NCBI GenBank assembly: GCA_010909165.1
Contig: MU008168.1
Coordinates: 558,001 to 622,000, forward strand
Direction: 5' to 3'
Source of the DNA: Anthoceros angustus
Lineage: Eukaryota > Plantae > Anthocerotophyta
DNA length: 64,000 nucleotides
The position numbers and the translations under genes are program-made. How positions within the stretch are numbered: position 1 is the first letter of the stretch; the number at the start of each line of letters is the position of its first letter. The notes under the pieces are model-generated. The model did not search any database, was not told the origin of the DNA, and saw only the letters and a program-made list of their open reading frames with translations. Below are positions 18,921 through 52,032 of this stretch, one piece after another.

Positions 18921-19303
18921 TAGAAAGTAAAGTAGAGAGAGAATTTATTATTTTATGATCACATCACACAATTTGTACAAGGCCAAACCATACGATATGG
19001 AGCGTGTTTTCTAGCCTTCGTAAGGTATCAGCGGTTGTCATAAAGAGCTCAGACTCAATTGAGAGATTAATTTTAATTGAGTAATTATTATATTTATTTT
19101 TAATGAATAGCAATTTAAAGCATTCTATTGAGCATTGTGGATGAGTACCTTTCCATGAGGAGTTACACTTGGCTTGGTATGCTTTTTGACGTAATTAAAT
19201 GTTGTCAAAGCCTAAGCACTCTAAAATACACTATTATTAAGTGCTCATGGGAATCAATTTAATTCTGATTAGTCATTCTATCTTATCTTATGCATAACAT
19301 AAA

Positions 19304-23638: not shown

Positions 23639-24538
23639 TGTTTATATGAAGTCAGATTTATGTTTAAGGAGTAAACAATATAAAGAATTTTAGCAATACA
23701 CTAGTAGTATAGACTACAAGAAAGATCACAAAATAAATCACCACCACTCACCAATCAATGTAATTTTTAACAAGAAATATAATAGTGAGAATTCGAGAGT
23801 GATAACTAAGTCTAAATACAAGCTTCTCACTCTGTATTTAAAATAATTAGTATATAAGAAATATTTATTTAATTAACCTAAACATAATATAAGATTTAGA
23901 ATATATTTTAATACTTTACATCCATATTTTACTCATTTCTCGCTTACCATTTGTACTCAAGGTTAGGAAGTACTTGTATGTACATACAGGCATAACTAAC
24001 TACTTTAGCATGCAGCTTGGTAGCAGGAGGACTTTGTTATCCCCCGACAAGACACCCTGGAGGAACATGGCTTGGACATGTTTTGGTCGTTGAAAGCGAA
24101 GCACAGCTTCACGTCTGGCTGGACCGTAGCTGTGCTGCTCACCTCAGTAACCATTGCGGGGCGGAAGTTTGGAGGCAGCTCCACAGGCGGCAACATGGTG
24201 GAAGACCTAGGTGGCGTTGGAACCAAGGGGCCCCAGCTGTCTGGATTCATGACTCGGAAGGAAGGGTGCCCGTCTTCGATTTTCTTCTCGTCAGCTAGCT
24301 TCAGAATTGAATAGACTAGGAGTGTGCATGAGAGCTCCAGAGTGTGGACTGTTGAGGATGTAAATAGCCTCGGACTTCCAGCACGCTTGTTGGATCCGTT
24401 GCTGCTGCTGCTGTTGCTGGTGCTGGTGCATGCACCTCGCACACCTTCCTCAAGGCTGCTCGAAATCAATCACGAGCATCCCTTCCCCTGCTGCCTGTGG
24501 CGGCTTGCAGTTCGACAACCAGACACTCAGCTGGAGTG

Positions 24539-28689: not shown

Positions 28690-29520
28690 ATTAAGCAGAC
28701 CATATCAAGTACGTACACACAGGGGGACGAAATCTGACCTTTTTTCGCCCGGAGTCATGCATCCCTTGCGGGTTCTTCTTAACTTCTGCTCACTTTCTCG
28801 ACCTTTTCATCCGACGATGCTCATACCCCTACCTGATGTTACAAACAGCACTAGGACCCTCCATCAGCTGGTTCCGATTCACAAGATACTTGGACAAAAC
28901 TTGCAAGAAACTCTTGCACCTATACCTTGAGCACTCTGCTTCCACAAGCATCCACAACCCAAAGAGCACATATAGATCGCACGATGGTCCTTGACCGTCG
29001 TCCTGAGATCCTCGTCCCCCTCATCCACCAGACGCCAAACGAGAGTCGCCTCATCTGGCTTGATACCTTCCAAGCATCCCCGAATCGGCAACCTAGCCTT
29101 TCTGCTACGTAGAGCGTCGCAGAAATTCTCCTGGGCAAAGCCCAAAATCAAAACGTCATGCAAGTAAAACTGGTCGACGAAGCACGAGTCAATCTACGAA
29201 TCAGCTTCCAGGCTGCACACGCATAGAAGGCCCGCTATCAAGTACAGGGAGGCCTTCCCACTCCACATCCCAGCATCCAGCCATCGCTTCCCAGCGTTCT
29301 CTCACAGGGACTTAGAGAACATGTATGCATAAATGTGGGGCTCCACCACGTTTAAAGCCTCACTCAAGCGTCCCCTTGGAGGACTGATCCAGCCGACTCG
29401 GATGCCACAAAACCTGTTGCCGCTCAATGTTATAGTGGAACCCCGTTGGTTGGGGCCATTGCCAACCGACGCTTCCATTGTGGCTTGCGGGTCACACGAC
29501 GCTTGCAAGGTGATGTGGAT
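28690..29520 (+). mobile_element. Degraded Ty3/Gypsy-type integrase and GPY/F remnant
   Basis: Broken frames give HRGT (cf. DRGT), LPQASTTQRAHIDRTM (cf. HPQTDGQTERVNRT), SVAEILLGK, DEARVNL...KARY and EPRWLGP, in integrase order and with stops. Confidence 0.5.
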
Positions 29521-29871
29521 GGATGACCACATGCTTGCGTTGCTACAATTGTTCGTTCTCTTCTGGATCATCAGCTGTTGTATGAAAGCCATGATAATGG
29601 TGGACGCCCTTGATCCCGGCGACGACCCTGATGACACCAACCATCACCCTTAAGCAACCTTCCCTGGATATGGGCAACAGCACTTCCGCCCACGTATGTC
29701 ACGTCCACCCTAACGTCTAATGTTTCTAGGTTTTGCTCTATGAAAATCAAAATCGCCCATTCAGATGATAAGTCGAAAGCACAGACCTAAAACCATCTAA
29801 ACAGTTTAATGGGGTCTTCTTATTCTACTTTGTTGAGAAAACCGGGGTCTATGCACAGTCTGTTGTTGGAC

Positions 29872-29898
29872 TATGGAATACCGATCTCGTCACACGGG
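29872..29898 (+). repeat. Left terminal inverted repeat (27 bp)
   Basis: TATGGAATACCGATCTCGTCACACGGG, preceded by TSD TTGGAC. Confidence 0.97.
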
Positions 29899-30499
29899 CC
29901 GTTTAGGGTTTTTTTCCATTGTGACCAAAGAAGTTTTCCGGCCGCATACGGCGGGAAAACTTCCGTGCCACACACTTGATTGCCGGCTGCCTCGTGTCCC
30001 GATCTCACTAATGGTGTTTGTGTCGAATCTTTTACGGTTGTGTGTGACACACAACCTTTTCGCTTTTAGGGCCGAGGCATGGGCCATCGGACATCCTTCG
30101 CATGACCCCATCTCGCCTTGCCTTGCCATCACGAACCGTCACCAGGGCTTGATGGGAGATAGCGTGGAGGAGGGCACAAAGCTGGGCGATACAGCCCTTC
30201 TCGCTCGACACTGGTGCGCCTGTACGCCTCTACTATCGCAGCCCATCCAGCGTCAGGCGCATTGGGGCCATACAGTGCCTCGCGCACACCATCTTCCTGA
30301 ACCACTTTTACATTGCACCACAACAAAGCCACCACTGGGCTCAACTCTCAAAACGCTAACAAACAAATCCAAATTGTCACCGCCTCCCAGTCATGGTGAG
30401 CGCACAATGTCACCGCCTCCTGTGTCATGGTGAGCGACAAATCAATTTTCTCCGGCCTACACCTAGCTCACTCCGGGCTCGTCGCCCAGGCCACACGCC

Positions 30500-31864
30500 C
30501 CTCACACCTCGTGCACCATAGACGCGGCGGGGTGATGGCCGCCCACGCCCACGGGTGGCTTCACCTCCGCCCACCGGTGGAGGTATTCGGGCAATGCGCC
30601 CCTCGTGCTCCCGCACTCGCAGAGTGTTGTTAGTGCCATGTGCGGGATACATGTCCGGAGGAAGTCCATGTCCCGCAATCCTTTGCATATGCATTGTCCT
30701 CGCCATCTCGCAGCTCGACAACCATGCAGGGCCCATACGAGCCGGGCCCTGCTCGCACAATGGCGCTGCGCCCTCCTCCACAATGTCAACCATGCATAAA
30801 TGAATGGACAGTACTAGCTGTTTGCTCACCCCGCCAAGAATTTATGCCGAGTGGTGGCATCTCGGGGCCACGCTTTGTGCATACCGAGGGCCACCCACAT
30901 CGAACTCCTCGCCATCGCCTCCTCACCCCCATATGCGGGTGGTGCACCCACCCTTGTAGTCGACCTTCTTCTTGAATGCGATAGCGAGCACATGGCCGGA
31001 ATGTCCCGCTGGCCGCCGATCTTCCGCACCGGTGCCTATTCCATACCGCCTCCAACGCCGAGCTCCGCCTCATCGTGGGCATGAAGGTCACGCAGGAATG
31101 GATGTGCTGGGGTTGGTGATGTCCATCACGCTCCTCACCATATCCATCATGTACCCTTGTAGAGGAATGCCCACTTCTCTCCCAAGGACCGCCAAATGCT
31201 CAATCCTCCGCAACAATCCGCATTCATCGACTTCACCACACACCGCATAAGGAAAACGCACCAACCTCCTAACTTTTACCTCGGTTGTGCAGAGGGGCGG
31301 ATGAAGTTGCTTCCATGTGCCCTTGGCCTCGCTCGGTTCATATCTCGCCTCTATTAGGTTGTGCTCTGCTGCGTAGTCCGACCGAATCCGCGGATGCCCA
31401 AACTTCCTCACCGCCACATAGGCGTTGAAAATCGCTGCCCCTCGTTATCCTCCGACCAACTGTGGGACGAATGGGTTGCCCCATCTATGGCCCTGCACTC
31501 AAGTAGAATTGGTACATCTTGTCATAAGTCGCGACAAGGCAACCATGACCCGCCAACTCCACAACCCCGCAATCACTTCTTCCTCGCAACGCAACTCCGC
31601 GAACATCGCTGCCCCCCTCCTCACGCACTTACAATCCATATGCCACATGTACATGGGTGTCGCATTGGTGTACCGACGCGGATGCGCATCGCCGACCGCC
31701 GTGTTATGTGCTCCGGCCGCATCAAACGCAGCCTCCACCGCCTCCTTGGGATTTCGATTCCATCCAGCCTGCGCACGAATCGTATTCCGGCGTTCACGCC
31801 GGCCGGGTGATGGGTGTGTGCGTGGCACCGCGCACACCTCCTCCACGGACAACCTCCCATACAC
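30500..31864 (-). CDS. IS3EU-type DDE transposase (integrase-core fold); frameshifted as assembled, probably intron-containing
   Basis: Ordered motifs: RRYTNATPMYMWHMD (D at 31636-31634), YDKM, AIDGATH, IFNAYVAVRKFGHPRIRSDYAAEHNLI (D at 31378-31376), HN...RIE (E at 31201-31199), FMPT...WNRH (31043-31032), RKIGGQRDIP. Donor-like GTAAGT at 31632 and GTAAAAG near 31284. Confidence 0.8.
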
Positions 31865-34027
31865 CGCGCCATGCCGTGTGCCGATCGAGCCTCGTCACGT
31901 GCTCAAGCCGCAGCCTAGCTCCGTCGGTAGGCCTTTCAATGGTCTCCACGCAAGTGTTGCCGCCAAATCATAGTTTGCGGTGTAAGGCGCGCGCACCCGC
32001 GTCTCCTATGCATCCCTTCATCTCCACCTTCCAGCCCTCATCCCCACGGCTCCTCGCACGAATTGCCTCAAGTTTTCACCGTCTGATGATGATGGGCTTC
32101 CGCCATGACCTCGATGCAGCCTGGCCGGCGACCGCCCACCATCTTCCTTCGCCCCGCCGCCCGGAAGGCCGCGCGCCTGGCCCATGGGCACCCTTCACCG
32201 CTGCTCCCCACGTGATGGCCAATGTGGAGACTTGGTGGCCTCAACACCTCCAGACCTCGCGCCTACTTACTGATGGAGCGCTTTTTCCTGCCCATGCGCC
32301 TTCCTCCCGTTCAAACCCCAAATGCACCTCTCGTGAGCAGTAGGCCGACCGATCCTCCTAACACTTTCCGCCCGAGTAATGGCATGTCCGCAGCCAAGGG
32401 TTTCAGACAAAGTGGACTTCGACACCGTTAGCGTATGCCCACTCCGATTTTTGTTCCACGGACGGTCCGCCAAGCGCTATGGACGGGGTTTCCACACCGC
32501 GTGATCCGCAGAGGTAGACTGCAGCAAGTTCTGGCCGAAAGCGCCCGTAGCTCACTTTTCGCTTCCGCATTTCATTCATTGTTTGAAGTGCGACCACAAG
32601 TGCACTCCACCAACACTTCCAAACCAACAGACGCACCAAACACCGTCTGTATGTGAACAATCTAGAATGGGCCGCTCGCCGTGTGCAAACACACTTGCGC
32701 CTCGCTTTCCGCGGCCATCGACAATTAGCGATGGCCGCCTCCTCGCTCTTCACTCTTGATGCTTTCCCCGCAAACCCGCAAATGATGTAACCGCCGCCTT
32801 ACCTCAATGCGCAGGGTTCCACGACGGTCCTCGGTGCGAACAAAAGGCATGGGATCTTCCACTATCGAGCGTATCCTGCGACCCCCATTGTGTGGCATGC
32901 CCCGATAATCGTGTCACATGCTTCCAGTTTGGAATACTCCTTCGCTCGATTCAAGTCCATGTAACATATGAAATGCTCCGCCTGTGTACACGAACGGCAA
33001 TGACCGCGCCCACAAAAAGTTGTGTTGATCCAACTCGGGAGGATGCTCAATGTCCCAACCGCCGACAAACGAGCCTCACGCATGTTCCAATGCCGCCTGG
33101 GCCCGGTCCACAGTGCACATGTGACGCCGGTCCCATTCCGCCCAACCGCCTCACCACTAGCTTCCAACTCCACTCTTGCGTAACATCCATCGCTATCATT
33201 CCCTCCACTGCGACCATAGGGTGCCATCCAACCCGCTTTTCCTCCACTTTCGAACGGTGATTGCCGAAAAGGCGTCCTTCTCATCCGAAAACTCCCACGT
33301 AAGCCTCCATTGACTTCTCACGAGCATGGTCACGGTGGCGTTCCTATCTCGATGTTCAGCACGCATTGCAATCCCGGCTCTTCGCATCCACAACGGCACC
33401 AACGTGCCATGCCTTTGGCTGCTCCAAAGATTCCGCCCATGCATGATGACGCCACCGAGGCACCTTCACCCACCTCCAACCCACCTCAATGGTCAATAAT
33501 CCCCTCCACCAAAAATGAAATCTTTGTGCATTGCGGACAATGCCGAACCTCCAATACCATGAGTACCCATTTCCCGGACCAAAGATCGTGCTCACATTTC
33601 GCCCTCCGTGCCATGTACGCCTCGCACATGCGGAGTCGGTGGAGTGGATTTGCCGGGACTCTCCCACTCCCACACCGGCTCCACTGCCGGGCTTCCGCGA
33701 GCCACCGCCGCTTCCACGGCCTCCTCCGCGCCCCGCCGCGCATGCCGATCGCCGTCGGATTGAGCGCCTTCCGGCGAGGAAGGCGTTCGGCGCGGACGGT
33801 CGGCGCAAACCGCCGCTTCCGCGAGCCACCGCCGGTGCAACCTCCGGCCGTCACAACATATCGCCGACGCCGCCGCCGTGCATCATGCCGCCGCCCCTTC
33901 CTCCACTTCGCCGATCGCTGCCTCCGCCCGGCGCCCACCATCCACCTCGCCGCCTCCACTTCGCCGATCGTCGTTCGCATTGGCGCCTTCCGGCGAGGAA
34001 GGCGTGCGCCTTCCGGCGCCCACCATC

Positions 34028-34061
<34 letters not shown>

Positions 34062-36340
34062 CGATGACCACCTCGCGCCGCCGCCCCTTCCTCCACGGAC
34101 AACCTCCCATACACCGGCCATGCTGTGCCGGTGGAGCCTCGCCACGTGCTCAAGCCGCACCTAGCTCCGGTAGGCCTTTCAATGGTCTCCCCGCTGCAAG
34201 TGCACCGCCAAATCATACTTATGTGGTGGCCAAGGCGCCCCGCCGCCTCCTATGCATCCCTTCATCTCCACCTTCCAGCCCTCATCCCCACCGGCTCCCA
34301 CGAGAATTGCCTCAAGTTTTCACCGTCTCGATGATGATGGGCTTCGCCATGACCTCGATGTGCCTGGCGCACCGCCCACCATCTTCCTCCTTCGTCCGCC
34401 TGGCGAAGGCCGCGCCTGGCCCATGGGCACCCTTCACGCCGCTTTTGCCCCACGTGATGGCCAAGGTGGAGACTTGGTGGCCTCAACACCTCCACCTCGC
34501 GCCTACTGCATGCTGGGAGCGCTTTTTCCTTGCCCATGCGCCTTCCTCCCAGTTCAAACCCCAAATGCACCTCTCAGTGAACTGCCGGCGCCGATTTCGA
34601 TCCTCCCTAACACTTTCCGCCCCGAGTAATGGCATGTCCACAGCCAAGGGTTTCGTGACAAAGTGGACGCTCGATCAGTTAGCGTATGCCCACTCCGATT
34701 TTTGTTCCAGGACGGTCCGCCATTCAAGCGCTATGGACGGGGTTTCCACCGCTGCGATCTGCAGAGGTAGATCGCCCGCAGCAAGTTCGGTGAAAGCGCC
34801 CGTAGCTATACTTTTCGCTTCCGCATTTCATTCATTGTTTGAAGTGCAAGTGCACTCCAGAACACTTCCAAACCAACAGACGCACCAAACACCGTCTGTA
34901 TGTGAACAATCTAGAATGGGCCGCTCGCCGCAGCAAACACACTTGCGCTGCCCCTCGCTTCGCGGCCATCGACAATTAGCGATGGCCTCTCCCTATCTTC
35001 ACTCTTCAGCCGCTCGCCGCAAACCCGCAAACGATGTAACCGCCGCTTACCTCAATGCGCAGGGTTCCACGACGGTCCTCGGTGCGAACAAAAGGCATGG
35101 GATCTTCCACCTATCGAGCGTATCCCGCGACCCCCATTGTGTGGCATGCCCCGATAATCGTGTCACATGCTTCCAGTTTGGAATACTCCTCGCTCGATTC
35201 AAGTCCATGTAACATATGAAATGCTCCGCTGTACACGAACGGCAATGACCGCGCCCACAAAAAGTTGTGTTGATCCAACTCGGGAGGATGCTCAATGTCC
35301 CAACCGCCGACAAACGAGCCTCACGCATGTTCCAATGCCGCCTGTGGCCGTCCACAGCACATGTGACGCCGGTCCCATTCCGCCCAACCGCCTCACCACT
35401 AGCTTCCAACTCCACTTCCGATTGCGTAACATCCATCGCTATCATTCCCTCCACTGCGACCATAGGGTGCCATCCAACCCGCTTTCCTCCACTTTCGAAC
35501 GGTGATTGCCGAAAAGGCGTCCTTCTCACCGAAAACTCCCACGTAAGCCTCCATTGACTTCTCACGAGCATGGTCACGGTGGCGTTCCTATCTCGATGTT
35601 CGAGCACGCATTGCAATCCCGGCTCTTCGCATCCACAACGGCACCAACGTGCCATGCCTTTGGCTGCTCCAAAGATTCCGTGCCCAAGGCGCATGATACC
35701 GCCCACCGAGGCACCTTCACCCACCTCCAACCCACCTCAATGGTCAATAATCCCCTCCACCAAAAATGAAATCTTTGTGCATTGCGGACAATGCCGAACC
35801 TCCAATACCATGAGTACCCATTTCCCGGACCAAAGATCGTGCTCACATTTCGCCCTCCGTGCCATGTACGCCTCGCACATGCGGAGTCGGTGGAGTGGAT
35901 TTGCCGGGACTCTCCCACTCCCACACCGGCTCCACCGCCGCTTCCGCGAGCCACCGCCGCTTCCACGGCCTCCTCCGCGCCCCGCCGCGCATGCCGATCG
36001 CCGTCGGATTGAGCGCCTTCCGGCGAGGAAGGCGTTCGGCGCGGACGGTCGGCGCAACCGCCGCTTCCGCGAGCCACCGCCGGTGCAACCTCCGGCCGTC
36101 ACAACATATCGCCGACGCCGCCGCCGTGCATCATGCCGCCGCCCCTTCCACTTCGCCGATCGCTGCCTCCGCCGCCGCCCGCTTCCGCGAGCCACCGCCG
36201 CCCCTTCCTCCACTTCGCCGATCGTCGTTCGCATTGGCGCCTTCCGGCGAGGAAGGCGTGCGCCTTCGGACGGCCATACAAAACCGCCGCCCGCTTCCAC
36301 CGCCCGGCGCCCACCATCCACCTCGCCGCCTCGGATCGCC
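31841..36340. repeat. Tandem duplication of about 2.25 kb inside the transposon
   Basis: 31841 aligns with 34090 and 33840 with 36090; copies differ mostly by 1-3 nt indels. Confidence 0.9.
32311..33650 (-). other. Tentative HECT-like ORF2 remnant (second copy about 34554-35900)
   Basis: Across frameshifts: VGVFGEK, AMDVTQEW, YAIGSGVG, a P-x-A-x-TC-like segment and terminal GAFGV*. Weak motif resemblance only. Confidence 0.35.
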
Positions 36341-36844
36341 CCGCCGCCCCTTCCTCCACCGCCGCCCCTTCCTCCGCCCGGCGCCCACCATCCACCTCGC
36401 CGCCTCGGATCGCCCCGCAGCGACGACGGCCCATCGCCCACGCCTCGTGTCGCGCAAACTCGAATGGATCATACCAACACGTAAGAGTTGTGAGGCTCGA
36501 GACGACGCCGACCGCGCAAAGCTTACATTTCGCAGGAGGCCACATAGCCCCGCCGCCGCCGCCGCCAGGGCGGCGTACGGAAAGCTGCATCAAGCATGGC
36601 GTGGGCAATGGAGACCGCCACCGTGCAATCCACCGCAATCAATAGCGAGGTTTGAGAATTCATGGTGACCCACGCAGATTGCAATCGCGCACACGGGCCG
36701 AGCACCTCTGTCTCCACTTGTAGGTGCACCTCCACGAGATCCACGCCGAAAACGCCTCCCAAGGTGGGTGCGCCAATCGGTTGATCCTGCCACCGTGGCC
36801 AGCAGGCTTCCACACCACCTTCCGCTCGGGCGATTGCTACTGGT

Positions 36845-39660
36845 TGTCCATGGCCTCCCCACCTCCCCTCCGCCGCCATGGCTCCTTCCCCGGCGCCCGT
36901 GCCGCCGCACCTCCTCCTCCATCGCCTCCCGCTTCAACGCACCATCATGGCGGGCATTGAATGTGCACGAATCATAGGTATACTTGCACGGCCTCGGATC
37001 GTCGAGATCCCCGATACCGCCTTTACGCCGCCGCCCATTCGCATCCGTGACCGTCCGCAAGCGCCGCAGTATATGCCGCATGTTCCGCCACCGCACCTTC
37101 CGCCCGCGCGTGCAATTGCGATGCCATGTGCCACATGCGATTCTCGCCACACCGTGCATTTTCAGCAAACATTGAATGTGCAATCGCGCACGACCGCACA
37201 CCTTACAACGATCCGCAACTTAGCGGCAGCACCCACCGGGCCGGGACTGCCGCCGCCGCCGCCGCCTCGCAACCCTTACTTGCCGCATTGCTCACCATCA
37301 CCGCTCGCACCATCACGCCATTCCCAACCGCAACCAAGATTACAATTTTGTGCCTTCACGGCCGGCACTTGGTTCGCTTCCACCGCCCGGCACTCGCATC
37401 CTCGCCAAGTACTCGAACATGGTTCTCCGTCTGCGGTTGATATCCCGGAACAACCCCTGCTCTCATTCCATTCCATTTCTCCATACCGCACGAAATCAAC
37501 CAATTCATAATACCTCATAGGCCACCTCTCCACGGTCGTGGCACTCGATGCGTGCACTGGAAAACCAAATCCTAAGGTCGCCAGCTCGCAGCTCTCCTTC
37601 CGGTACCTCTTCCATCCCGACGGCGCCAACCGCCGAACACTTGGTGCATGAAAATGTGGCACTCCACCACCGGTAGGCACTCGCAGAATTTGTCCACCGC
37701 CACTCCATCCGGCCCGCCTCGCCGGCAGTCGTGTGACGGCAAGTTTCTGGATAGCCCTCTATGCGCAGACATCGGCTTTGATGGTCCTCCACAAATGCCA
37801 AGAACTCGGACGCTCCCGAGTTGATGGGAACCATAGGCCACGCAGAATGTACTCGCCGAGCTTTGCATCTCCCATTCCTCCGCCGCCCCTTCCACGCGCC
37901 CCCGCACAAGGCCGTGCTCGCCACAGACCGCAAACATGCGCATCCGGGCACCGTGATTTGCAGCGGTCATCTACGGCATGGGCTCCAGCTACCTACTCAC
38001 TGCTGGCCACCTTCCACTCTTCAAGCGCAACCGCCAGCCCGAGGGAACACACCAACCCACCTGAGCCGGCCGCCTACGCTCATCGCCGCCAGCGATCTTG
38101 TGTTCCTCATCCTCCTCCACGGGCACGGGCGTCGGGCGCGTTGCGCACCCTTTTCCACCCACCCGCCACCCGGCCGCGCCTTCCTTGCACGTAAGTAATG
38201 CGCACCCCCGCGTTTCCCTTCCAGCCACCCGCGGCAACCGTCCCTTCCCACTGTCCCTTCTCCGCACGGGTTGTCCATGGCCTCTCCCACTCCTCCCTCC
38301 TCCGCCGCCATGGCTCCCGGCGCCCGTGCCGCCGCACCTCCTCCGCCGCCTCCCGTTTGCACCATCATGGCGGGCATTGAATGTGCACGGAATCATAGGT
38401 ATACTTGCGGCCTCGGGATCGTCGAGATCCCCACGGCGCCGCCTTTACGCCCGCCCATTCGCATCCGCGTCATCGCAAGCGCTGCGGGCATATGCCGGCA
38501 TGTTCCGCCACCGCACCTTCCGTCCAAGTGCGTGTGCAATTGCGATGCCATGCAGGCCACATGCGATTCTCGCCACACCGTGCATTTTCAGCAAACATTG
38601 AATGTGCAATCGCGCGCATCGCACACCTTAGCGATCCGCAACTTAGCGGCGGTTGCACCCTCGGCGTGACGTCTGCAGCCATGCGAAGCCCGCCGCCTCG
38701 CAACCCTTACTTGCTGTTGGCGTTCACCATCGCCGGCTCCGCACCATCACGCCATTCCCAACCGCAACCATTACAATTTTGTGCCTTCACGGCCGGCACT
38801 TGGTTCCTTCCACCGCCCGGCACTCGCATCCGCCAAGTACTCGAACATGGTTCTCCGTCGCGGTTGATATCCCGGAACAACGCTCCGTCTTCTCATTCCA
38901 TTCCATTTCTCCATACCGCACGAAATCAACCAATTCATAATACCTCATAGGCCACCTCTCCACGGTCGTGGCACTCGATGCGTGCACAGGAAAACCAAAT
39001 CCTAAGGTCGTCAGCAGTTCGCTCTCCTTTCCGGTACCTCTTCCATCCGCCGTGCCGCCGAACACTTGGTGCATGAAAATGTGGCACTCCACCAGTCGGT
39101 AAGCGCTCTCGCAGTAATTTGTCCACCGCCACTCCATCCGGTCCGTCCCTCGCTGGTGCAGGTCGTACAGGACGGCAAGTTTCTCTGGATAGCCCTCTAT
39201 GCGCAGACACAGGCTTTGATGGTCCTCCACAAATGCCAAGAACTCGGACAGCTCCCAGTAGTTGATGGGAACCATAGGCCACGCAGGAATGTACTCGCGC
39301 GAGCTTTGCATCTCCCATTCCTCCGCCGCCCCTTCCACGCCCCCCGCCGCAAGGCCGTGCTGCCAGCACCGCAAACATGCGCATCCGCACCGTGATTTGC
39401 GGTCATCTGGCATGGCTCCGACTACCTACTCACTGGCCACCTTCCACTCTTCAAGCGCAACCGCCGGCCGAACACACCACGGGCGCCCCGCCTCGCTCGC
39501 CGCGCGGCGATCTTGTTCCTCATCCTCCTCCACGGCACGGGCGTCGGGCGCGTTGCGCACCTTTTCCACCCACCCGCCGCCTTCCTTGCACGTAAGTAAT
39601 CACCCCCGCGTTTCCCTTCCACCACCGGCCGTCCCTTCACGCCCTTCTCCGCACGGGTTG
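36845..39660. repeat. Tandem duplication of about 1.4 kb carrying an unknown minus-strand coding segment
   Basis: 36845 aligns with 38272; both copies encode WPMVPINYWELSEFLAFVEDH...LGFGFPVHASSATTVERWPMRYYELVDFVRYGEMEW. Confidence 0.85.
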
Positions 39661-39899
39661 CGACGCCGAGCGATCCAGGTGGGCACCGCGTCTGCTCAAA
39701 CCCAACCGCACACGCCATGTATCGCCACCCACTTCCATTTATTTCACTAACCTCCCTTGGGCGGGCGGCATGCACACCTGTATCACAAACCCTTTCACTT
39801 TGAGGCCGCCATACACAACCTCCCAATTTTCATTTCCAACCAATCCATCTTCCCGGCCCATGCCGGTGTGGTTTTGATATGCTGCCCGGACATACCCAG

Positions 39900-41200
39900 G
39901 AAGAGGTCGCAAATCTATATACAAAAAACCTAAAAATCATAACCCAAGGAAAAGGTCCACATGGCATGCACATGGTATGTATGCATGATGCATGGTTGCA
40001 ATCGGATGCACGTGAACATGTCTACCTAGATGCTGTGTCATAGCGCAATCCATCTATCTGCATCGTCATGTGTATATGGCACGGTACTATGACACATATA
40101 TAGGTCATCGCATCTACATAGAAAAAAACCTAAACACCATAACCCAAGGAAAAGGTCCACATGACATGCACATGGTATGTATGCATGATGTATGGTTGCA
40201 ATCGGATGCGTGAACATGTCTACCTAGATCTTTGTGTCATAGCGCAATCCATCTTTCTGCATCGTGATGTATATATGGCACGGTACTATGACACATATAT
40301 AGGTCATCGCATCTATATAGAAAAACCTAAACACCATAACCCAAGGAAAAGCGCAAGTACGTTGTTAAGTGCATACATATCATTTGTTCGAAGGCCAAGG
40401 ACAAGTATGATAATAAATAAACCCAAAGTTTCGACATTCGGGTGTGAGGTGGCACGTGATTCAACCTGTTCCCTTGGGCTTCGGCATACGCTACCAGGAA
40501 ACATGTCTATATATGTGGCTTCCCTACCCATTCATAATTCGATTGTAGAAGTTTGTCTGCATGGAACGCCATCCATACTTCGGCCCTGCAGAGGTGCAGG
40601 GCCGAAGAAGACAAGGTCTTGTCTTCTTTCTCTCTTATGTCCTGTGGGATCCGCATTTTCCGGTGGGAGCCTCGGTCCAACCCCTTGCTGTGACGTGTTT
40701 CCTTGGTCTTCGACTTTAGCGAACATTGTTGTCATACCACTTGCCATATGCCATGTGATTTGGGCGTTGCATGTGATGAGGGTGCGCATTGAATGTATGG
40801 CATGCACATGGTGTGTATGCATGAAGTATGGTTGGCATGTTGTGTATGTGAACATGCCTAGGTAGATGTTGTGTCATGCCACAATGAATCCATGTGCATC
40901 GTGATGCATGTGACGCAGTACTACAGATATATAGGGTTGCGAACACATATATAGAATACATGAACAACATAACCCAATGAAAAGGGCGAGTACGTCGCCG
41001 CATACATATCATTTGTTCAAGGCCAAGGACAAGTAGGGTTTTAAATAGACCTATAGTGCCTACCAAGTGAGAGGTGGCACGTGATTAACCCTGTTTTGGT
41101 CTTGACATACTGCATAAACATGTCTATATATGTGGCTTCCTACCCAATTCATTATTCGATTGTAGAAGTTTGTCCGCATGGAAAGGCATCCATACTTGAC
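39900..41200. repeat. AT-richer modular repeat block, in inverted orientation to 47300-48620
   Basis: Repeated units (AAACACCATAACCCAAGGAAAAGG..., CGGTACTATGACACATATATAGGTC) whose reverse complements occur near 47950, 47985-48020 and 48150-48195. Confidence 0.85.
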
Positions 41201-44200
41201 CATGCACCGGGCTTCTTTCTCTCTTGACCTTTGGGATCTAGTGGGAGCGTTAGGCAACCAACTTGATCGGCCACCGGTCAAATGCATTGCTTGCCTTGGT
41301 CTTGGACACAAGGGACCATTGTTCATGTGTTCATATAACGAATATGCACCCTCCTTCATTATTGTCATTGTCATTCGAGGAGGGAGCCGCAGAGGTGCCC
41401 CAACGTCATCCTCGTTTGAATCGCAAGTGCATTGTGTTCTATGGCGTCGTCTGTCCAATTGCACATTCAACCTCGCCTGCACATTCAACTGCAATTGCCT
41501 TTTTCGCATGCTATGCATTTTCACCAATGTAAGGCATTGTATGCATCGAAATTCCGCGTTAGGCATTTTGGGTTGTGGTTCGGCATTTTCAGCTTCTTTG
41601 GTTTGTTGGGTGGGGTGGGTTGGTCTTTGGGTTGGGGCGGGTTGGGTGGGGCGGTTTGTGGTGGTGGGGCCGGCTGTGGGTGGGGTGGCCGGTGCGGGCT
41701 CACGCCGCTTCAGCCGGCCCCTCCGTGCGGCGGGCGGATGGCGCGGGCTCGCCGCACTACCGTCTGCGGGGGCCGGCGGGAGGACCCTGCCGGGATGGGG
41801 TCGGGATGTGGGAGTGACCAGACAAATCTCCGAGCCATGAGGCCGGAAGGGCCAAGGGCAACCATGCCATCGAAAAATGTGAAGGATGATGGTTGGCAGC
41901 CAATATGGGCCATGCTCACGGATTTCATGGCAAGCAATATGGGATGGACTTCATGAGCGGATGCAGACCATGGCGCGCACTACGAAATACCTTATAAATG
42001 CATAGCCGTGGACGCATGCTGCAATGCATGAGCGAGGATGAAGGGCATTTGAATAAGCCGGGGCACAATGAATTGCTTCGAACGCCGTATTGGTGTGCGG
42101 TCCGGACACAAATGCTCGAGGCGTAGTTGATACCGCATCATTTGCCCTATGCCCACTATGTTACGGACCATATCGGACCCAATATGTTAGTGCGACACGG
42201 TGCAGATCTTCGCACATGTGACGCGGAAGGAACCATGGACCCTCCGCACCTCGACATGTTTGGCGGGCGCCACGGGAAGTCAAACGCCGGCGACCCACTA
42301 CGTCATGTCCTCTGCAACAACCAAAGTGAGCGGTGAGCGGCAACGCGATGAGGGTGTGGCGTGGCAGCGCGCGGCATGCATGGCGGCGGCGTGGCGCAAC
42401 TTGTGGAGAGTATTGTCGCAGCGCAACGCAGCAATCATGTTTTGCGAGCCAAAACTTACGCAATCGCACCGCCCTCGTAACTCAACGATGTACCGCATGC
42501 CGCCGCGTGCTCAAAGATGTCGTATGGGATACGGAGGATTATGGACAATGATTTCAGCTTTCCTGGGCTGCAACCCCACACCCTTCGAACACTGGCCGCG
42601 CAATGCTTGCAGACATCAGCTGGCCATCGATCTCCTTCCACATGCGCGCGTCTCTCGTCCCACACAACCGAGGCGCCTGCACACATTTGGCTGGCAGGGG
42701 CAGTGTGGACATAAGGTATCAGGCTAGCGCGGATCTTGCACACAGGCTCCATGGCGTCTAGCGGACACCGTGAGCATTGCACATCACAACCCGCTGCAGA
42801 AAGAAGAAATTGTGGGCACACCTTGGCCGGGGCACGCACGGGGAGAAGACGATCCGGATGGAGGCGGATGGAGGCGGCCGTGTCGGCTGCCCTCGGATGG
42901 AGGCGGCCGTGTCGGCCGCCACCGCATCGCAGCCGTTCGCGCCCGGGGGCGTCAATTGCCCGGCGCGGGACCGCGCCAGCGTGGGCGGCGGCGTCCACGC
43001 CCAAGATCGCGATGCGGACGCCTGCCCGCCCAAGCCGCCATCGGGAGCCGGAGGTTCAACGTGGTCGCCCGTGGCCCTTCCACATATGGCGGGAATGGGT
43101 GGGAGGATCCCACGCATTCCGCGCCACGCCACATTGGTGGGAGGAGGAGAGCGGAGAGCGAGCGCCTCCTGCGGGCGCCGTTGGGACAATCCCATTCACG
43201 CACTGCGGAATCACGGCGACGGTATAGGCCCGCGGAAGAAGCAAAGAGCGAGCGGCGCAACTTGTGGAAGAGCTCGGCACACAAAGTCGCTCCGGATACA
43301 AGTACGGACAAGGCTTTCCCAAGGTCGACTTGGGAGATGGAGAAGGCGGCGTTGTCTTCGTGTCCGCTCGACCTCACGCAGTGGAGCTAACGGTGCCCTC
43401 GCATGCCGGGCGAGCAGACAACGCTGCCGCCAAGGAACGGTGCGCCATTGTTGATGCGTGCGAGGCTCTATTCGACAAACTGGTGGCGATGGGACCGGGC
43501 CGCGTGGTCCGTGATGTGCCGCGCTTGCGTCGCGCACACACAAGTCCGTGTATCCGACATTCTGTCAATTCCCCAGCGACAACACACAGAGGCCGACAGT
43601 CGATGCAAATGCTGTACATCCGGGACGTGGACGCGCAATTTACACCTCTGCGGTGCGGAGAGCGAGCGGCGCGGCGCCTTCGAGGTGTGGCGAGGAGGAG
43701 GAAGAAGTGGATGTCCCGAGGATGGGAGGGATAGCGGGCGGTGGCAGGTGGTGGGGCGCGCCTGGAGGAAGAGTTCAACAACGCCGTCGTCGGCATCCCC
43801 GACCTTGAGGCACTCACGATCCCACCCGCCGCGACGGGACATGTGGGAGGAGGCACCCTCTCCTCAAGGCCAGCAGCTGGTAGAGCCTGCCTGCGGAGGC
43901 GGGCGACGAAGTCCCCGGCGCGACGCGCTGCACGCCGTTGATGGGCGTCTCGCGGGAGGCGGGAGGAGGCTCTCGGCATGGCAACGGACCTTCTTAGTTG
44001 TGGAAGAGCTCGGCACACCACCGCGGTGGAAGGATGCGGGCGGCGTGCGGCGAGACCGGCCAGCCATCCAGAGGAGCTTCTTTTCTTCAAATTTTGGGTC
44101 ACTTGCGGGGAATGGCGGGCGCGGAAACGGGCGGCTGCGCTTGCAAGGCTGCAACATCTCGTGGACACAGGCGCGAGCCGAACTCGGCGGAAGGGCTCGC

Positions 44201-44926
44201 TCGATCCGATGGTCCAAGGCATGGACGGCCGGAAATGTTCGACACGCCACCATCCAGGGGTTCTGACGCGGCGCTCTACCGGCCGGTGCGCCTTCTCGAG
44301 GACATGGACGACCGACTAGACCTTCGCCATGACGGCGGAAGAGTTGCATAACGCGAATAGCACCAACTTGAGGTTCGCGATGGATGAGGACGAGATGCTC
44401 CGATCGACCGCAGCCACCGCAGTGGGTCGCTGCAGGCAGGCGAGGCGGAGAAAGAACGGCTCAGACGCTGGCATTCCAGCGCAGGAAGCGTGACGATGCC
44501 GCACGCCGCGATGCACGGCTGACCGAGAAGGCTCAGATGCCGTCCGAGCGGAGCGGCGATTCGAGGACATCCTAACCCTCGGTGAGTGCCCAAGATGCCA
44601 TTGCACTGGGCACCGATGGGGTTCGCAACGCCACGGCTTGGTGATTGCGGGTTGAGGCGGGCATGGAGTGCCAACAATCGCTCGACGACCGGGCGGGAGG
44701 GGGGACCTTTCCACCGCTTAGAGTGCACGGCACGTGCACGGGACAGGGTGATGTAGTCCACGAGGTTGGAAGGGCGGGCCTACGAGGCGGTGCATCGAGG
44801 CTCGAAGTACTGGGAGTCGCCGTCATTTGTGGACGGCGTGTTCAACGTTAACGCGGCGGTGCTACACATTACCACATCGCCCAGTGCATCCGACCCCTAC
44901 ACATGGTAAGATATATGGTCAATTGA

Positions 44927-45020
44927 TGCAAAATGTGCGGCACGACGGCAGATGCCTCCTTGTGCGAGCCATGTTCTTGACCACCGCTCTACATGCCGCC
45001 GGGCAAATGGCATTGAGGTG
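44927..45020 (+). other. PHD-finger-like coding remnant within transposon cargo
   Basis: CKMCG...LCEPC...PPLYMPPGKWH matches the PHD pattern CxxC...LLCDxC...PPL..PxGxWxC; interrupted by apparent stops or indels. Confidence 0.55.
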
Positions 45021-47299
45021 AGTCGTCCCATGACATTTGCCACACTCGCGCACTAGGGAGCCAAAAGGATGGCGTGCACAAGGAGTGGAAGGATGCGGGC
45101 ACGAGAGGACGTTGAAGAGGGCTTTTAAGACGGATATGTTGACAAGCCACCCACTCATGGCCATCCTCCAAGAATCAAACGCGGGGCTCGGCGGGCGAAG
45201 AGGAGCGGCGATTTCATCGGCCGTTGGTCCGATGGCGAGCGAGCTCCGGATTTTTCAAGCATGTGGCCGACCAAGCCCTCGCATGTCCCGGGCGGCGGTG
45301 GCGCGATTCGGAAGAAGGTGCGACCTTTTATTCACCGGGTGCACGTTGGCGGGTGGGTGGGAGAGGGTTCCGCATGTGGTGCACTGGACAAGAGGGCCAT
45401 GTTGGAGTGTCTAGGGAGTGCACGTTTGAGAGTGTCACCAAGTTCTTCACCGCCACGCATGGATGCAGGCGACGCAGCGAGTGAGATTCGAGGCCCGCTG
45501 CGCAGCTGAGAGAAATGTTGTGAAATCGCCGAGAGATGTCATTCGGCGATAGAGCGCCTGCTCACCTTCATCACCGATGAGTTTACTTCCCAAGGCCAAT
45601 GGTGGTGCAAGTTCCTCCCGCATTTGGGCACCGCCACCGAGGACGTGCGCACTCACGCCTCCCGCCTATGTCTCAAGCTCGTGATGGCCACGCTGTGGGA
45701 AGCCATCCGCATGAACTCCGTGGGGAACGCTTGAAAGGCCGGTCGGACCTGCTTCATTAGAGACGTGGTTTCGGTTGTGTTTGTCCCGCCCCGCACAAGA
45801 GGGCACTAATGTGAAGAGACTTTGAGCCCGCACTCACGCTTGGTTTATGGCGGATCGACACGAAAACGAGGCACCGCACGTGAGAAGACGCCGCCTCGAC
45901 GTGAATTGCTTTCCGTCACCAATTGAGAATGGATGAAACAAGGTCGGGCGCAATACGGAAACGAGGGTTGGCGGTGGCATTTCGGGGCCGGTCGAATGGC
46001 GAGGCGGAAGTGCGATCCCGAGAGGTTCCAATCGGCGCCCGACAACCACATTGGGGAAATGGAAAGAGGTGCGTGAGGTTTTGAGGCGGAAGGTCTTCCA
46101 GCGTGGAGCGTGCACCGCACGCATGGCGATCGCGAGGTGGTGCGTACACGAGAGCAAGGTTGTTGTCATGCGACAATCCGAGGTGGATGCTCAAAGTTCT
46201 TGCCGACATCGGATGCGAGAGCCGCGGACTACCGAAGAAGACAATCGCAGAAGTGTGCGTGGAAGTGCGGTCGGCCCGAAAGTGCGGGTGCTCCCGATGA
46301 GACAGCGAGGTTTGGGCCATCGCATTCCGCCGGTGAGGTGCCGGGCATGACGCCGAGGAGTTTGACTGCGTGTGGAAGACGGGGATGCAGCGCAGGTCTG
46401 CGGATGCGGAGGAAGGCGCTTTGGTGCATCATCGATGGTGAGCCCACTCGCACGCCGCACACCATCCGTGCTCAGCGTGCCTTATGCGGTGGGAGGAAGG
46501 TCCTTCGAATGCGCAGTGGAGGCGGGCGGCGGACGGCGAGAGGCGCAGGAATGGCCTCAAAGGGAGGTGCATTTCGATTGCCCGCCGCAATCACCGGAGG
46601 CATAGCGTGAACTTGCCTGGGTGGCGATGGCGGCTGCTCATAATAGCAATGGCCGCGATCGCGAGTGGAAGAGTGGTTGTGGAAGGAAAGGGCACTTTTT
46701 ATACTCCTCCATAAGTTTGGTGTTTCGCAAACCAAGGACAGATCCGCAGTTGATTTGTAATCGGTCCAAAGCCTGACGAATTTGCCCGTGTAGTGGTCGG
46801 GTCCAAAGCACAACGACCGTGTTTTGCTGTGTCAGATGAAAAACTAGTCCTCTTTCCCAATGACGAAAACAACATCACTTGCCATTCGCCCAGGCCGAGG
46901 ACTAGTTCATGACATGATTTTTTCTCGTTGACGCCCAAAGGCCAAGGACTAAAATGTACTCGGATTGACGAATGGTCCGAATGTAAGGTCCGATTCAAGT
47001 GTAGGAAGAAAATCCATTTCCCAACTACACGTACTTGCCTATCCCGCCCGCCTATATATATACGAAGACAAGGCCTTCCTGGACCATCCCGACCGTCATG
47101 AAAGGGAAAATACTCATTGGCCTTTGGAGCTTTCACATTGGCAATGAAGGGAACAAAACTCCTTGGCCTTTGCACCAATATGTCAATCAATGAATGGAAG
47201 GAAGACCTTGGCCTTTGGACCAAACCGAGAATCACCAAATGAAACGGCAAGTTATGCGACCATTGCGACCGCTTAGTGACCATTGCGGCCGCATAGGTG

Positions 47300-48620
47300 C
47301 GCCCATTACAACAGACGAACCGACGCTCCCACTAGACAATGCGGTTCCCAAAGGTGAGAAGAGGGAAAAGAGAAAAGAAGGGACAAGTATGGCGCCTATC
47401 CTTTATGACAAACATGTACAATCGAAGAATCATAGGTTGGGTAGCCCACATATAGGCAAAAACCACCGGGACTCTCGATGAAGCACCACCTGACGATGGT
47501 AGGCACTACTGATCTATTTAGAGTCCTACTTCCTTGGCCTTTGAACAAATGATATTTATGCGCTTAACAACCTACTAGCCCTTTTCCTTGGTTTATGATT
47601 TTCGTATTTTCTATATAGGTGGTGACCTATATATGTGTCGAGTAATCGTGCCTTACAAACATCGCGATGCACATAGGTTGATTGTGCCATGACAAAGATC
47701 TAGGTAGACATGTTCACATACATGACGTGGTCCAAAGGCCAAGGACGTTTCTTCCTATATATAGGCGTAGGGCGGATAGGCAAGTAGCGTGTAGTTGGTA
47801 GTCCATGGTTGGGTAGCCCACATATATAGGCAAAAACCGGAACTGCTGATGGAGTGCCACCTCACCGATGGTAGGCGTTAGGTATATTTGTAATCCCACT
47901 TGTCCTTGGCCTTGAACAATTGATATTCATGCAATCAAGAACGACTCCTTTTCCTTGGGTTATGGTGTTTACGTAGTTTGAATATAGATGCGACCTATAT
48001 ATGTGTCATAGTACCGAACATGCATCACGATGCACATAGATGGAAAAGGTGCCCATGATGAGCATCTAGGTATACATGTTCACATACTTCACATGTCAAC
48101 CATCCATCCACATGCATGCATACCATGTGCTTTCCATGTGCACATTTTCCTTGGGTTTTGATTTTTAGGTCTTTGTATATAGATTCGCGATGTATGTGTC
48201 GAGTACGCGTCAACATATATCACGATGCACATGCACATGGTATGTATGCATGATGCCCGTTGATGTGATGCATGTGACCATGTCTACGTAGATGCCGTGT
48301 CGGGCACCTTTTCCTTGGGTTTTGATTTTTATGTCTTCTATATCCGCACGTGACCTTTATATGTGTCATGGTACCCTTCCCGACATGCATGACGGTGCAC
48401 ATACATGGATTGTGCCATGGCACAAAGATCTAGGTACAAATGTTCGGATGCATCACATGTCAACCAGCCATCATGCATACATACCATGTGGATGCCATCC
48501 ATAGGCAATGCACATGTGACATTGGTCCAAATGCGAAGGACTTTTCTTCCTATTTATAGGCATGCAAGGCGGGGAAAGGCTACCGTAGATGCCATGGATA
48601 GATGGCGAACACATCGGAAA
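47300..48620. repeat. AT-richer modular repeat block, inverted partner of 39900-41200
   Basis: TTTTCCTTGGGTTATGGTGTTT, GACCTATATATGTGTCATAGTACCG and CCTTGGGTTTTGATTTTTAGG units. Confidence 0.85.
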
Positions 48621-51563
48621 AAGACGGAAGTGGTAGGTTGACTAGCGGTCAACGATCGTCCGGACTCAAGCAAGTTACGCTTAGAAGGTTGGAACCGGTA
48701 AATGAATCGAAAGCAGTGGCAACATGCGAGCGCAATGCGTGCGGTGTTGAAATCGAATAGCCGCAGCAGCCGGCAGCTTGGCGCGCGCCAAACAGTGCTG
48801 GTGGCAAGAAGTGATGCATTGGGGTGCCAAATGCCACCGAAAGTACAGACAAGCGAGTTTTTCGAAGTAAGTTGGGGCACACTCAAGAACTCCAAGTGCC
48901 ACTTTTCAAAGTGGAAGCTCACGAGCATAGGCGTTTTTGGGCGGGCGGGCGCGAGGTGGAAGACATGGAGCTCGACACACCCATGTCGCCCGGGACGGAG
49001 GAGGAGGCGACCGGAAGGCATGGCGGCCGGGGCATGAGCGCACTGACCGCCGTGTGACGATGAGAAATGGCCGGCGGGCGGGCGGGCGCTCGCCTCCGGC
49101 GGCGGCCGCAGCGCGAGGCGGTGGCGGCGGAGGGCCGCGGCCACACCGAGGCCGCGGCAGTAATGCTTGAAGAGGCGCCCACGGACGAGCATGCAGGCGG
49201 AGGGCTCCCGGTCGGTAGGGCATCCCGATGCCGCCGCTTGGTGGAGCCCTCCGCAGTATACCTGGGGCCCAACAAGCGCGTGCAATGAGGTGTCGCTTGC
49301 GCCCCAAAGGGTCTGTGCAGCGGATGGGCCGCCGGTTGCGCCCGCCCAAACCGGAGGGTGCGAGGGTGATTGCATGCACCGCAAGTCCCGGATCGCAGAT
49401 GAGGGTCTGGCGACACCGAGGGTCGCAGCGCAGCCGGACGCATGCGCAGGGCCGCAGCGGAGGATGACGGCGGCGGCAGCCGACGCCGCCCGTAGGGAAG
49501 GGGTGGATGACCGCACCAATGGCGCAGTGAGGGTGGTGGCCGCATGCGCCGCCAATGGCCGCAGCAGTGGGGATGGCCCGGCCGCATGCGCCGCCGAGGG
49601 CCGCAGCGCCTTCAGCCGCCGCAGCCGACATTCGCCCACCAACGGCCGCAAGGCGGCCAAGGATCGCAACCCATGTGGTTGCCAAGGCGGAGGTTGCAAA
49701 CATGAGGCGCATGCCGTGACGGAGGACCGGCATCCTTGCGCCTTCGTGGACGTGGGGGCGAGGCGGAGGAGGTGGGGGCGGAGGGGGAGGATGGTGGGGC
49801 AAGCGGCTCCGGGCCGGAAGGAGCCGCGGGGCGCCCGAGAGTGGAGGAGAACGAAACCGAGGAGGGAGAGGAGGCGCCGGACGACGGCGGAGACGTGGAC
49901 CGGGTTGCGAACAGGGGCGCCGTGGACAACAATCGGAAGACTGATGGTAAGTGACACGAATCCGTGGATCGCAATGTGTTTGACAATGCCGGTGGGTTCG
50001 CTTGTCATTGTCATGCCTCGTAATGCCGGTTGCAAGTGGTGAACTTTGCCATGCCGTACTCATATGTCCGCGAGTTGGGTTTGCGGTGTGGACGGAGTGG
50101 ACGAGACCAGCCCTACAGGTCATCTACGACAAAACGGAACTTCTCGCATCCGCTATACACGGGACGTGAGCCGCCAAGATCGAATCGAGACCGGGCGCGC
50201 GGCGAGCGAGGAGGCAGAAGGCGAGAAGAGGCCGAGCTCATCGTTGAGCTCGGCGGCCAGCGTGGCACCGGAAGAGGAAGAGGTGCGGCCGAGCAGGGCG
50301 CGGACCTAGCGTGGGGCGGGCGGTGGGCGAGCCAAGATGCAAGGCGAGAGTGCGGGAGGCGAACCCGGTGTGAATGGGGCCACCGGGGAGGGGCCACCGC
50401 CCAAGGCCGCAACAGGTGGGGCATCCACCCAATGGAGCTCCGAGTATGGTAGCAGCAAGTCCAATGCGATTGCAATCGACGCCATGACGGGCGCCATCGC
50501 CTCCTTCTTGAAGTGGTGGAGAAGGTGCGCAACGAGGGTCCACCGCACCGACATGGAGGGAGTGATGGACAGACTCGGACGGCCGACAACGCAGGAATGA
50601 TCGGCCGCTGCTCATGGAATACATGAACGCAAAGAATGGCCGCATCCTCCATGCCATCGGGCCAATGTGCAAGTGCGGGTGGTGGATGACCACCCTCCCC
50701 AAGAATCGCCCCACGCCCAGCCCGGGTCCCCCTTCCCATTGGTGCCGGGATGAACCGCCTCCCCAACCTCACAGGTGGACGGCCGGGTGCACTGCCTGCC
50801 ATGGCACACCTCCCATGTCCGTGAGGGATATTCCCCTCCAAGAAAAGCGAACGGAAGTCCAGGAGGAGCCAAGTTCGGAGCACAAGAGGATGGAGGGCCT
50901 CGCCCGAGGCTCTTCAATCGTGGGCGAGGGAGGAGGGAGCGCTCCCACCATGAGGTGTGAGCGCAGACTATGTTCGGATGTTTTTGGTTGAACGGCAGAT
51001 GCTCAGTGTGTCTGTAGGACCGAAGTGGATTTGTAGGACGCAGTGACATTGCCTGCTTTGATGAGGTTGAGGAGGGATAGTGTGAAGCATGTTCAGACCG
51101 TAATGCCCGCATTGCAATCCTTTCGCGTCGGGGTTTGAAAGGTGAAGTTACGATCATCTTCGTCTCAAGTCGCCCCATACATCCAATCGCAAGCACAACA
51201 AGCATGTTAGTAGGCAAGCACAAACGTAGGGATCGCTCCCACATCCCGCCCTTCCCGTATATAGTGAAAGCGCATGTAAGCGGAGGATTGCGTGGCCGAA
51301 CGCTGGCCATACACAACAAAAGTTCACGTGTGTATGTGTTGCCGCCATGTTTGTGTGTAGACCCGATGAAAACCCTAACACCGCCATCAAAAACATCTCA
51401 GACACCATCTAACACCGTGCCGGAACGTGATAGAATGTTTTTTCCCCGTAAGAACCCCGTGAAGTGTGGCACGATTATACGTGTATTATACGTGAGTATC
51501 GAAAAGATTCCGTGGCATATCCTCGTAGCGTACACCGAAAAGAAAGAAAGTCACACACAGACT

Positions 51564-51590
51564 CCCGTGTGACGAGATCGGTATTCCATA
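51564..51590 (-). repeat. Right terminal inverted repeat (27 bp)
   Basis: CCCGTGTGACGAGATCGGTATTCCATA, followed by TSD TTGGAC. Confidence 0.97.
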
Positions 51591-51899
51591 TTGGACTCCC
51601 AGTGAGCGTGAGTCGTGACTCGACAGTCTGATGGTCCGACAAGCCTTATTTCAAAAATTAGGCTAAAACAAACCTGGGCTTGTCGTTGTTACAGGCAGCT
51701 CCCAGTGTGGAGGCTTCATGGCCTCAGCAACGGTAATAAGGAGTGTAATTTATATGGAGACTGGATTACGGACGACACGTGGTATACGAGCAGCAGCACT
51801 TTGGTGCTGCTGCCCCCATACCTCATATACCCTGCCTGCCAGCTCTCCTTCTGCTGCAGCTTCCTCCTCCAGCTTCTTACATATATGATTGCCAGCCTT

Positions 51900-52032
51900 G
51901 CACGGGACTGCCTCTGTGCGGGATTGCTTCTGTGCGGGATTGCCCTCTGTGCGGGATTGCCTCTGTGCGGGACTGCTTCTGTGCGGGATTGCCTCTGTGC
52001 GGGATTGCTTCTTTGCGGGATTGCGTTTGTGC
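51900..52032. repeat. 16-bp tandem repeat (TGTGCGGGATTGCCTC), about 8 copies, upstream of RBL10
   Basis: Read directly from the sequence. Confidence 0.92.

Follow-up and report, generated by a model that had tools for sequence, protein, structure and literature searches.

A probable 21.7-kb GingerRoot/IS3EU-type DNA transposon in the hornwort Anthoceros angustus

Ends and transposase of the element

The window analysed here is a stretch of 64,000 nucleotides from Anthoceros angustus (assembly GCA_010909165.1, contig MU008168.1, positions 558,001 to 622,000 of the forward strand). Two copies of the hexamer TTGGAC in this window enclose a 21.7-kb stretch that is very likely a DNA transposon of the GingerRoot/IS3EU type. 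It has terminal inverted repeats (TIRs) of 27 bp and a target site duplication (TSD) of 6 bp, and it likely moved as a unit and owes much of its length to internal duplications and an inner module.

The left TSD is located at 29,866-29,871 and is followed by the left TIR at 29,872-29,898 on the plus strand, which starts with TATGG. The right TIR is located at 51,564-51,590 on the minus strand, ends with CCATA, and is followed by the right TSD at 51,591-51,596. The 27-bp sequence TATGGAATACCGATCTCGTCACACGGG and its reverse complement each occur once, as a perfect pair, and the span between the outer ends of the TIRs is 21,719 bp. TTGGAC abuts both ends, and this is the record of one insertion only. 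A search with an 18-nt TIR pattern, allowing up to 3 mismatches, returned only the two element ends from the window (0.02 matches expected), and none of 100 shuffles contained two or more matches. The expected number of perfect 27-bp inverted pairs in 64 kb is about 1e-7. The perfect TIRs and the exact TSD described in an earlier sequence-only reading of this DNA were reproduced at both ends. No match to the TIR pattern was found in metagenome contigs, and a search of Rfam returned no matches.

Subterminal motifs are present at 29,903-30,048 on the plus strand and, mirrored, at 51,369-51,559 on the minus strand. The 10-mers TTAGGGTTTT, CGTGCCACAC, and TGTGTGTGAC appear at 29,903 and 51,378, 29,964 and 51,473, and 30,039 and 51,559, respectively. 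The first two pairs had been reported in the sequence-only reading and were found within 2 nt of where it had placed them, and the third pair is additional. The order of the 10-mers differs between the two ends, which indicates scattered motifs rather than the decayed remains of a long TIR.

A single public short-read run (X1) was found to contain part of this DNA (share 0.05), and it may derive from the same sample as the window. A 5,287-bp contig from X1 matches 29,000-29,899 without a substitution but with 12 gaps, and it ends 28 nt inside the element. Because this short-read contig crosses the left junction, that junction is not a long-read chimera. The contig is unbroken at the target site, which suggests that an empty allele is not common in X1, and no paralog of the joined flanks (an empty site) was found within the window. 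Some stretches of the element are matched by diverged X1 contigs (19 substitutions over 231 nt and 15 over 323 nt), but a second full copy was not seen. X1 contigs leave most of 31.7-39.7 and 41.7-47 kb uncovered, which is uninformative given the filters, the high GC content, and the errors in the window. No RNA data set containing this DNA was listed, which is likewise uninformative about expression.

The observed/expected ratio for CpG is 0.99-1.11 inside the element, compared with 0.67-0.72 in the flanks, 0.44 in a pentatricopeptide repeat (PPR) gene, and 1.0 in the malate synthase gene. The undepleted CpG fits either a recent arrival or an escape from methylation and demonstrates neither. 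The insertion is probably recent, as had been proposed. The CHG ratio in 30,400-51,200 is 0.72-0.86, which is below that of the host genes and flanks (1.08-1.31), with CpG undepleted.

A frameshifted gene for a GingerRoot/IS3EU-type DDE transposase is located on the minus strand at approximately 30,500-32,000. Four of its motifs were taken from the GingerRoot rows of a published DDE alignment (PMC6839031 Supplementary File 1). The minus-strand motifs appear in catalytic order as WHMD at 31,645, IDGATH at 31,488, FGHPRIRSD at 31,402, AAEHNLI at 31,372, HN at 31,289, and IEH at 31,204. The four motifs WHMD, IDGATH, FGHPRIRSD, and AAEHNLI each occur once across the six frames of the window and fall within 300 nt. 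The predicted catalytic codons are D at 31,634-36, D at 31,376-78, and E at 31,199-201. Two putative introns would begin with GT donors near 31,632 and 31,279. A helix-turn-helix-like part was recognized by eye near 31,900-32,000. A HECT catalytic motif considered near 31,960 was rejected, as another frame there reads by eye as a helix-turn-helix running into the transposase. The integrase-like DDE gene described in the sequence-only reading is present, with its motifs in order, and is frameshifted.

The motifs match the GingerRoot rows of the alignment, and the best matches by eye are SL_GR-020 and "SL-Gypsy-003". In the part of the alignment covered, the row labelled "SL-Gypsy-003" itself looks like a GingerRoot DDE domain and resembles the transposase at 31,645-31,350. 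The common origin of GingerRoot and some Gypsy elements proposed in PMC6839031 may thus trace back to a GingerRoot that was mislabelled or nested.

Internal architecture and cargo regions

Two tandem duplications are present in the left half of the element. Duplication 1 (31,839-36,359, minus strand; 2,250 + 2,271 bp) contains the N-terminus of the transposase and the upstream gene-like region B. The copies lie at 31,839-34,088 and 34,089-36,359, with 8 nt of exact microhomology at the junction. Duplication 2 is included in gene-like region C (36,526-39,660, minus strand), which is Cys-rich and gave no homolog. The copies lie at 36,839-38,265 and 38,266-39,660, with a microhomology of 5 nt exact and 7/8 overall. 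Together the duplications add 3,677 bp, and the element minus the duplicates is 18,042 bp long.

An inner module of 8,611 bp (39,904-48,514) lies between inverted arms about 1.3 kb in length, which consist of 199-bp units. The left arm (39,904-41,250) is an AT-rich array of units of about 199 bp, and the right arm (47,323-48,514) is inverted; local matches between the two arms show 69-85% identity. Since the outer TIRs, in contrast, match perfectly, the module is probably older than the last jump of the element. TATA-like motifs appear at 47,752 in the right arm and at 48,547 just beyond it. The 199-bp units (39,900-41,250 and 47,320-48,560) are rich in CATGCA/TGCATG, with 8.1 occurrences per kb compared with 0.9-1.5 elsewhere. 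We take this hexamer to be the RY motif, which is bound by plant B3 factors.

The inner module might be a separate nested element, Pack-MULE or foldback-like, inside an ordinary 9-kb GingerRoot, with region D as its cargo and no conserved family plan. This is a real possibility that we place somewhat below an even chance. The tandem-unit arms that bound the module are of the kind expected for such an insertion. Removal of the module and the duplicates leaves 9,431 bp, which is near the GingerRoot mean lengths of 8.57-8.88 kb given in the portion of PMC6839031 covered. In addition, an X1 contig joins 39,909 to 48,460 on opposite strands. The long inverted arms of a Pack-MULE or foldback element are present. 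Its long TSD (7-12 bp) was not seen; no direct repeat of 6-11 bp was found flanking the module when left ends at 39,861-39,930 and right ends at 48,490-48,619 were scanned. Regions C and E are also each preceded immediately upstream by an arm, in an orientation that is the same relative to both, and a duplicated promoter array would fit this arrangement equally well. The module may therefore have arisen as an old nested foldback/Pack-MULE-like insertion or through duplication of a promoter array, and its true ends may differ from those given here.

The reading frames of the element are broken every few tens of codons. Nearby host genes, by contrast, have long, unbroken open reading frames (ORFs), of 1,094 and 820 aa for PPR genes and 670 aa for malate synthase. 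The copies of duplication 1 differ by 63 substitutions and 88 gaps and those of duplication 2 by 42 substitutions and 85 gaps, compared with 316 substitutions and 28 gaps between PPR paralogs. The gap-heavy differences between duplicates, together with the flank that matches X1 with 12 gaps and no substitutions, point to unpolished sequencing deletions rather than decay as the source of most of the frameshifts.

Under a second explanation, the element is real and its length is inflated, both tandem duplications being consensus artefacts of long-read assembly, and the true size is about 18.0 kb. We regard this as doubtful. The copies do differ mostly by short indels, and patchily, such that an identical run of 233 nt adjoins bins with 18 substitutions and 14 gaps. 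The interior of the element is also clearly unpolished next to intact host ORFs of 670-1,094 aa. However, microhomology is present at both junctions, as would be expected of biological slippage, and an assembler would have no need of it. The microhomology moderately favours real slippage over assembly error.

Gene-like region D (41,990-46,700, plus strand) is about 4.6 kb long. An ankyrin-like repeat at its start (approximately 42,181-42,273) gave a best whole-sequence E-value of 7e-7 to designed ankyrin proteins; this value is summed over repeats, with no single stretch significant, and ankyrin was not called by Pfam. A Cys/His cluster at its end (approximately 46,255-46,650) resembles an RBR/IBR E3 ligase by eye. 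The run at 46,396-46,643 that resembles IBR and RING2 was found in none of 200 shuffles, with motifs that were chosen afterwards. A reading of region D as a SWIM-finger MULE transposase was also considered and rejected; the motif spacing is poor, and by eye the Cys/His run is closer to IBR-RING2. Gene-like region E (48,600-51,150, plus strand) has an acidic low-complexity middle and, by eye, a broken PHD-like CxxC pair at its end. The CxxC motifs are located at 51,000 and 51,081 and are PHD-like by eye only. In a codon model, all scores were negative; the minus strand was favoured for all five left-arm segments, whereas regions D and E scored better on the plus strand.

The cargo was searched for in several databases. 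No Pfam family reached the cut-off in 150 of 170 frames of at least 70 aa or in 118 short frames from the three likely coding strands, and none of 40 frames matched PHROGs. Word-seeded homolog searches with the transposase frame and region D returned no homologs. The ESM Atlas gave no usable match for regions C and D, and five of six PDB searches gave no meaningful match. Regions B and C were not identified by the searches made. These blank library and homolog searches are attributed to the sequencing deletions and the frameshifts that they cause. The indels in the interior look like sequencing errors, and for this reason the cargo calls are weak. The ubiquitin-ligase-like and chromatin-reader cargo proposed in the sequence-only reading agrees with motifs seen by eye and passed no database test. 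Ankyrin is the sole cargo call that the sequence supports. The proposed "mobile gene island" overstates the content, as 3.7 kb is internal duplication and the 8.6-kb inner module may be a nested element.

The integrase-like DDE enzyme, either its own or that of a sister copy, would move the whole element by a cut-and-paste mechanism. The enzyme would bind the TIRs and the nearby motifs, excise the element, and integrate it at a target cut with a 6-bp stagger. Repair of this cut, which is established chemistry for the family, would have given TTGGAC twice. The starting point was likely a backbone of about 9.4 kb with the transposase and regions B, C, and E. It would have reached 21.7 kb through uptake of the 8.6-kb module, whose long inverted arms enclose region D, and through two microhomology-driven tandem duplications of 2.25 and 1.43 kb. 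The accessory genes, if they are RBR-ligase-like and PHD-like, would speculatively serve most likely to evade silencing.

Classification and known relatives

The literature comparisons below apply to the portions of the cited papers that were covered. A bootstrap value of 99% unites IS3EU and GingerRoot in a single lineage, and the complete families of IS3EU end in TA..TA and usually have TSDs of 6 bp (PMC10045372). The description of GingerRoot is based on 77 intact copies from Selaginella lepidophylla, 3,931-12,903 bp long, of which 72 have TA..TA ends and 22 carry gene fragments; relatives were reported in mosses and aquatic animals (Cerbin et al. 2019, PMC6839031). Fungal IS3EUs have TAYGG..CCRTA ends and carry TET/JBP and alpha-kinase genes (Kojima 2025, PMC12730594). 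Table S1 of that paper contains 27 IS3EU rows of 5,625-13,389 bp, 26 of which start with TAYGG.

The element has the TA..TA termini of IS3EU and GingerRoot, in the TAYGG..CCRTA form of the fungal families, and the 6-bp TSD. The DDE motifs appear in order, an agreement at the motif level only. The first 10 nt of the TIR are identical to those of IS3EU-2_MLP. The assignment to IS3EU made in the sequence-only reading therefore agrees with the ends, the TSD, and the DDE motifs.

The element shares with GingerRoot the ends, the TSD, the integrase-related DDE motifs, a land-plant host, and the presence of non-transposase sequence. It differs in length (21.7 kb versus 3.9-12.9 kb) and in TIR length (27 bp versus 100-150 bp), and it thus falls outside the descriptive range of the S. 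lepidophylla copies, which is not a criterion for the superfamily. It has several gene-sized regions, whereas the GingerRoot gene fragments are 84-1,654 bp long, and its host is a hornwort, a group absent from Table 2 of PMC6839031. The IS3EUs of rust fungi and Tuber share the TAYGG..CCRTA ends, the 6-bp TSD, and extra genes beside the transposase, but are 5.6-13.4 kb long with TIRs of more than 30 bp; neither of their cargo types, TET/JBP and alpha-kinase, was seen in the element (PMC12730594). Styx/REP9 of Zymoseptoria has an IS3EU-related transposase, a 6-bp TSD, and four genes in place of the two of the usual IS3EU plan (PMC8232023, PMC10853768). It differs in its fungal host and its accessory genes and was studied across many genomes, whereas one copy of the element is considered here.

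The presence of the superfamily in land plants and its carriage of extra sequence are both already in print in the portions covered. The statement in the sequence-only reading that no such element had been described in plants does not hold, given GingerRoot in Selaginella and mosses. Its description of the superfamily as usually only a few kb long is likewise at odds with published members of 3.9-13.4 kb, which often carry extra genes or gene fragments. Its claim of giant size was borne out, as the element is larger than the published members covered. No published report of IS3EU or GingerRoot from hornworts was found among the matches listed, in a weak search that did not extend to Repbase.

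Several points weigh against the assignment. The motif patterns were tuned after inspection of the window, and the shuffle counts consequently overstate significance (means per shuffled element of 0.07, 0.04, 0.003, and 0.003 for WHMD, IDGATH, FGHPRIRSD, and AAEHNLI, respectively; FGHPRIRSD and AAEHNLI together in none of 300 shuffles). The 27-bp TIR is shorter than the 100-150 bp of GingerRoot and the more than 30 bp of the fungal families. The transposase gave no true homolog in any database searched (Pfam, word-seeded, full HMMER, PDB, and viral and metagenome contigs). The full HMMER search returned two matches, both repetitive and unrelated (repeat-summed noise), and none was confirmed in the viral and metagenome contigs. 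The lack of a direct repeat around the inner module in the ranges scanned and the unconfirmed cargo identities other than ankyrin count on the same side.

An origin as a Polinton/Maverick-like or other viral element is highly improbable, as the size class of about 20 kb, the 6-bp TSD, and the integrase-type DDE enzyme would agree with it, but the ends are TA..TA rather than AG-type (PMC6839031), the transposase motifs match GingerRoot rows and not Polinton rows, and a six-frame scan showed neither a polB nor a Walker A motif and PHROGs gave no match, although the frameshifts weaken both blanks. No pPolB, packaging ATPase, or capsid was found by Pfam, PHROGs, or motif scans, a blank that is equally weakened by the frameshifts. 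A reverse transcriptase motif was also not found in the element, which is weak evidence in a frameshifted sequence. The TG..CA termini of Ginger1 and Ginger2 (PMC6839031) are also absent.

We conclude that the element is real and that it is an oversized member of a superfamily whose presence in land plants had been reported before. It raises the size range of the superfamily beyond the 13.4 kb of the published members covered and probably extends this little-studied superfamily to hornworts. A broader proposal is that an active family of giant GingerRoot/IS3EU transposons of 18-22 kb exists in hornworts and mobilizes several whole genes as a fixed set. An ankyrin-RBR ubiquitin ligase and a PHD-finger protein would belong to this set, and both would shield the element from silencing. 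We consider this unlikely. If true, such a family would be the plant counterpart of the TET-carrying fungal IS3EUs. If intact RBR-ligase and PHD genes were common to many copies, the idea that a plant DNA transposon carries its own anti-silencing kit could be tested on them. At present there is one noisy copy of a superfamily that has already been reported from land plants with cargo.

Neighbouring genes and repeats

Three paralogous E-class PLS PPR genes, 76-83% alike, are located at 1,000-3,400, 6,286-8,748, and 15,636-18,920. Two of these are intact, and the first (1,000-3,400) is frameshifted, either as a pseudogene or through error. An abrupt AT-rich block (30-34% GC) at 19,000-24,000 contains an exon with kelch repeats and an ORF of 302 aa that has no Pfam match. 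Minisatellite arrays are present at 4,134-5,621 and 51,903-52,032; their units are 47, 30, and 26 bp long, with a 16-bp unit in the array 300 bp to the right of the element. An exact look-up of four host proteins returned none of them.

Malate synthase is encoded by a single ORF at 58,674-60,686 on the minus strand, with a GC content of about 62-68%. From this protein and the abundance of E-class PPR genes, a hornwort would be the likeliest host, and Selaginella was rejected as host on the grounds of the low identity to S. moellendorffii and the position of the protein in the tree. The protein is 65-73% identical to 25 matches and about equally close to those of Sphagnum, Marchantia, and Selaginella (S. 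moellendorffii, only 72%). In a tree of 26 rows, the groups of mosses (100/98), algae (99/98), and vascular plants (87/95) all exclude it, and it is placed, on a long branch, weakly beside Marchantia.

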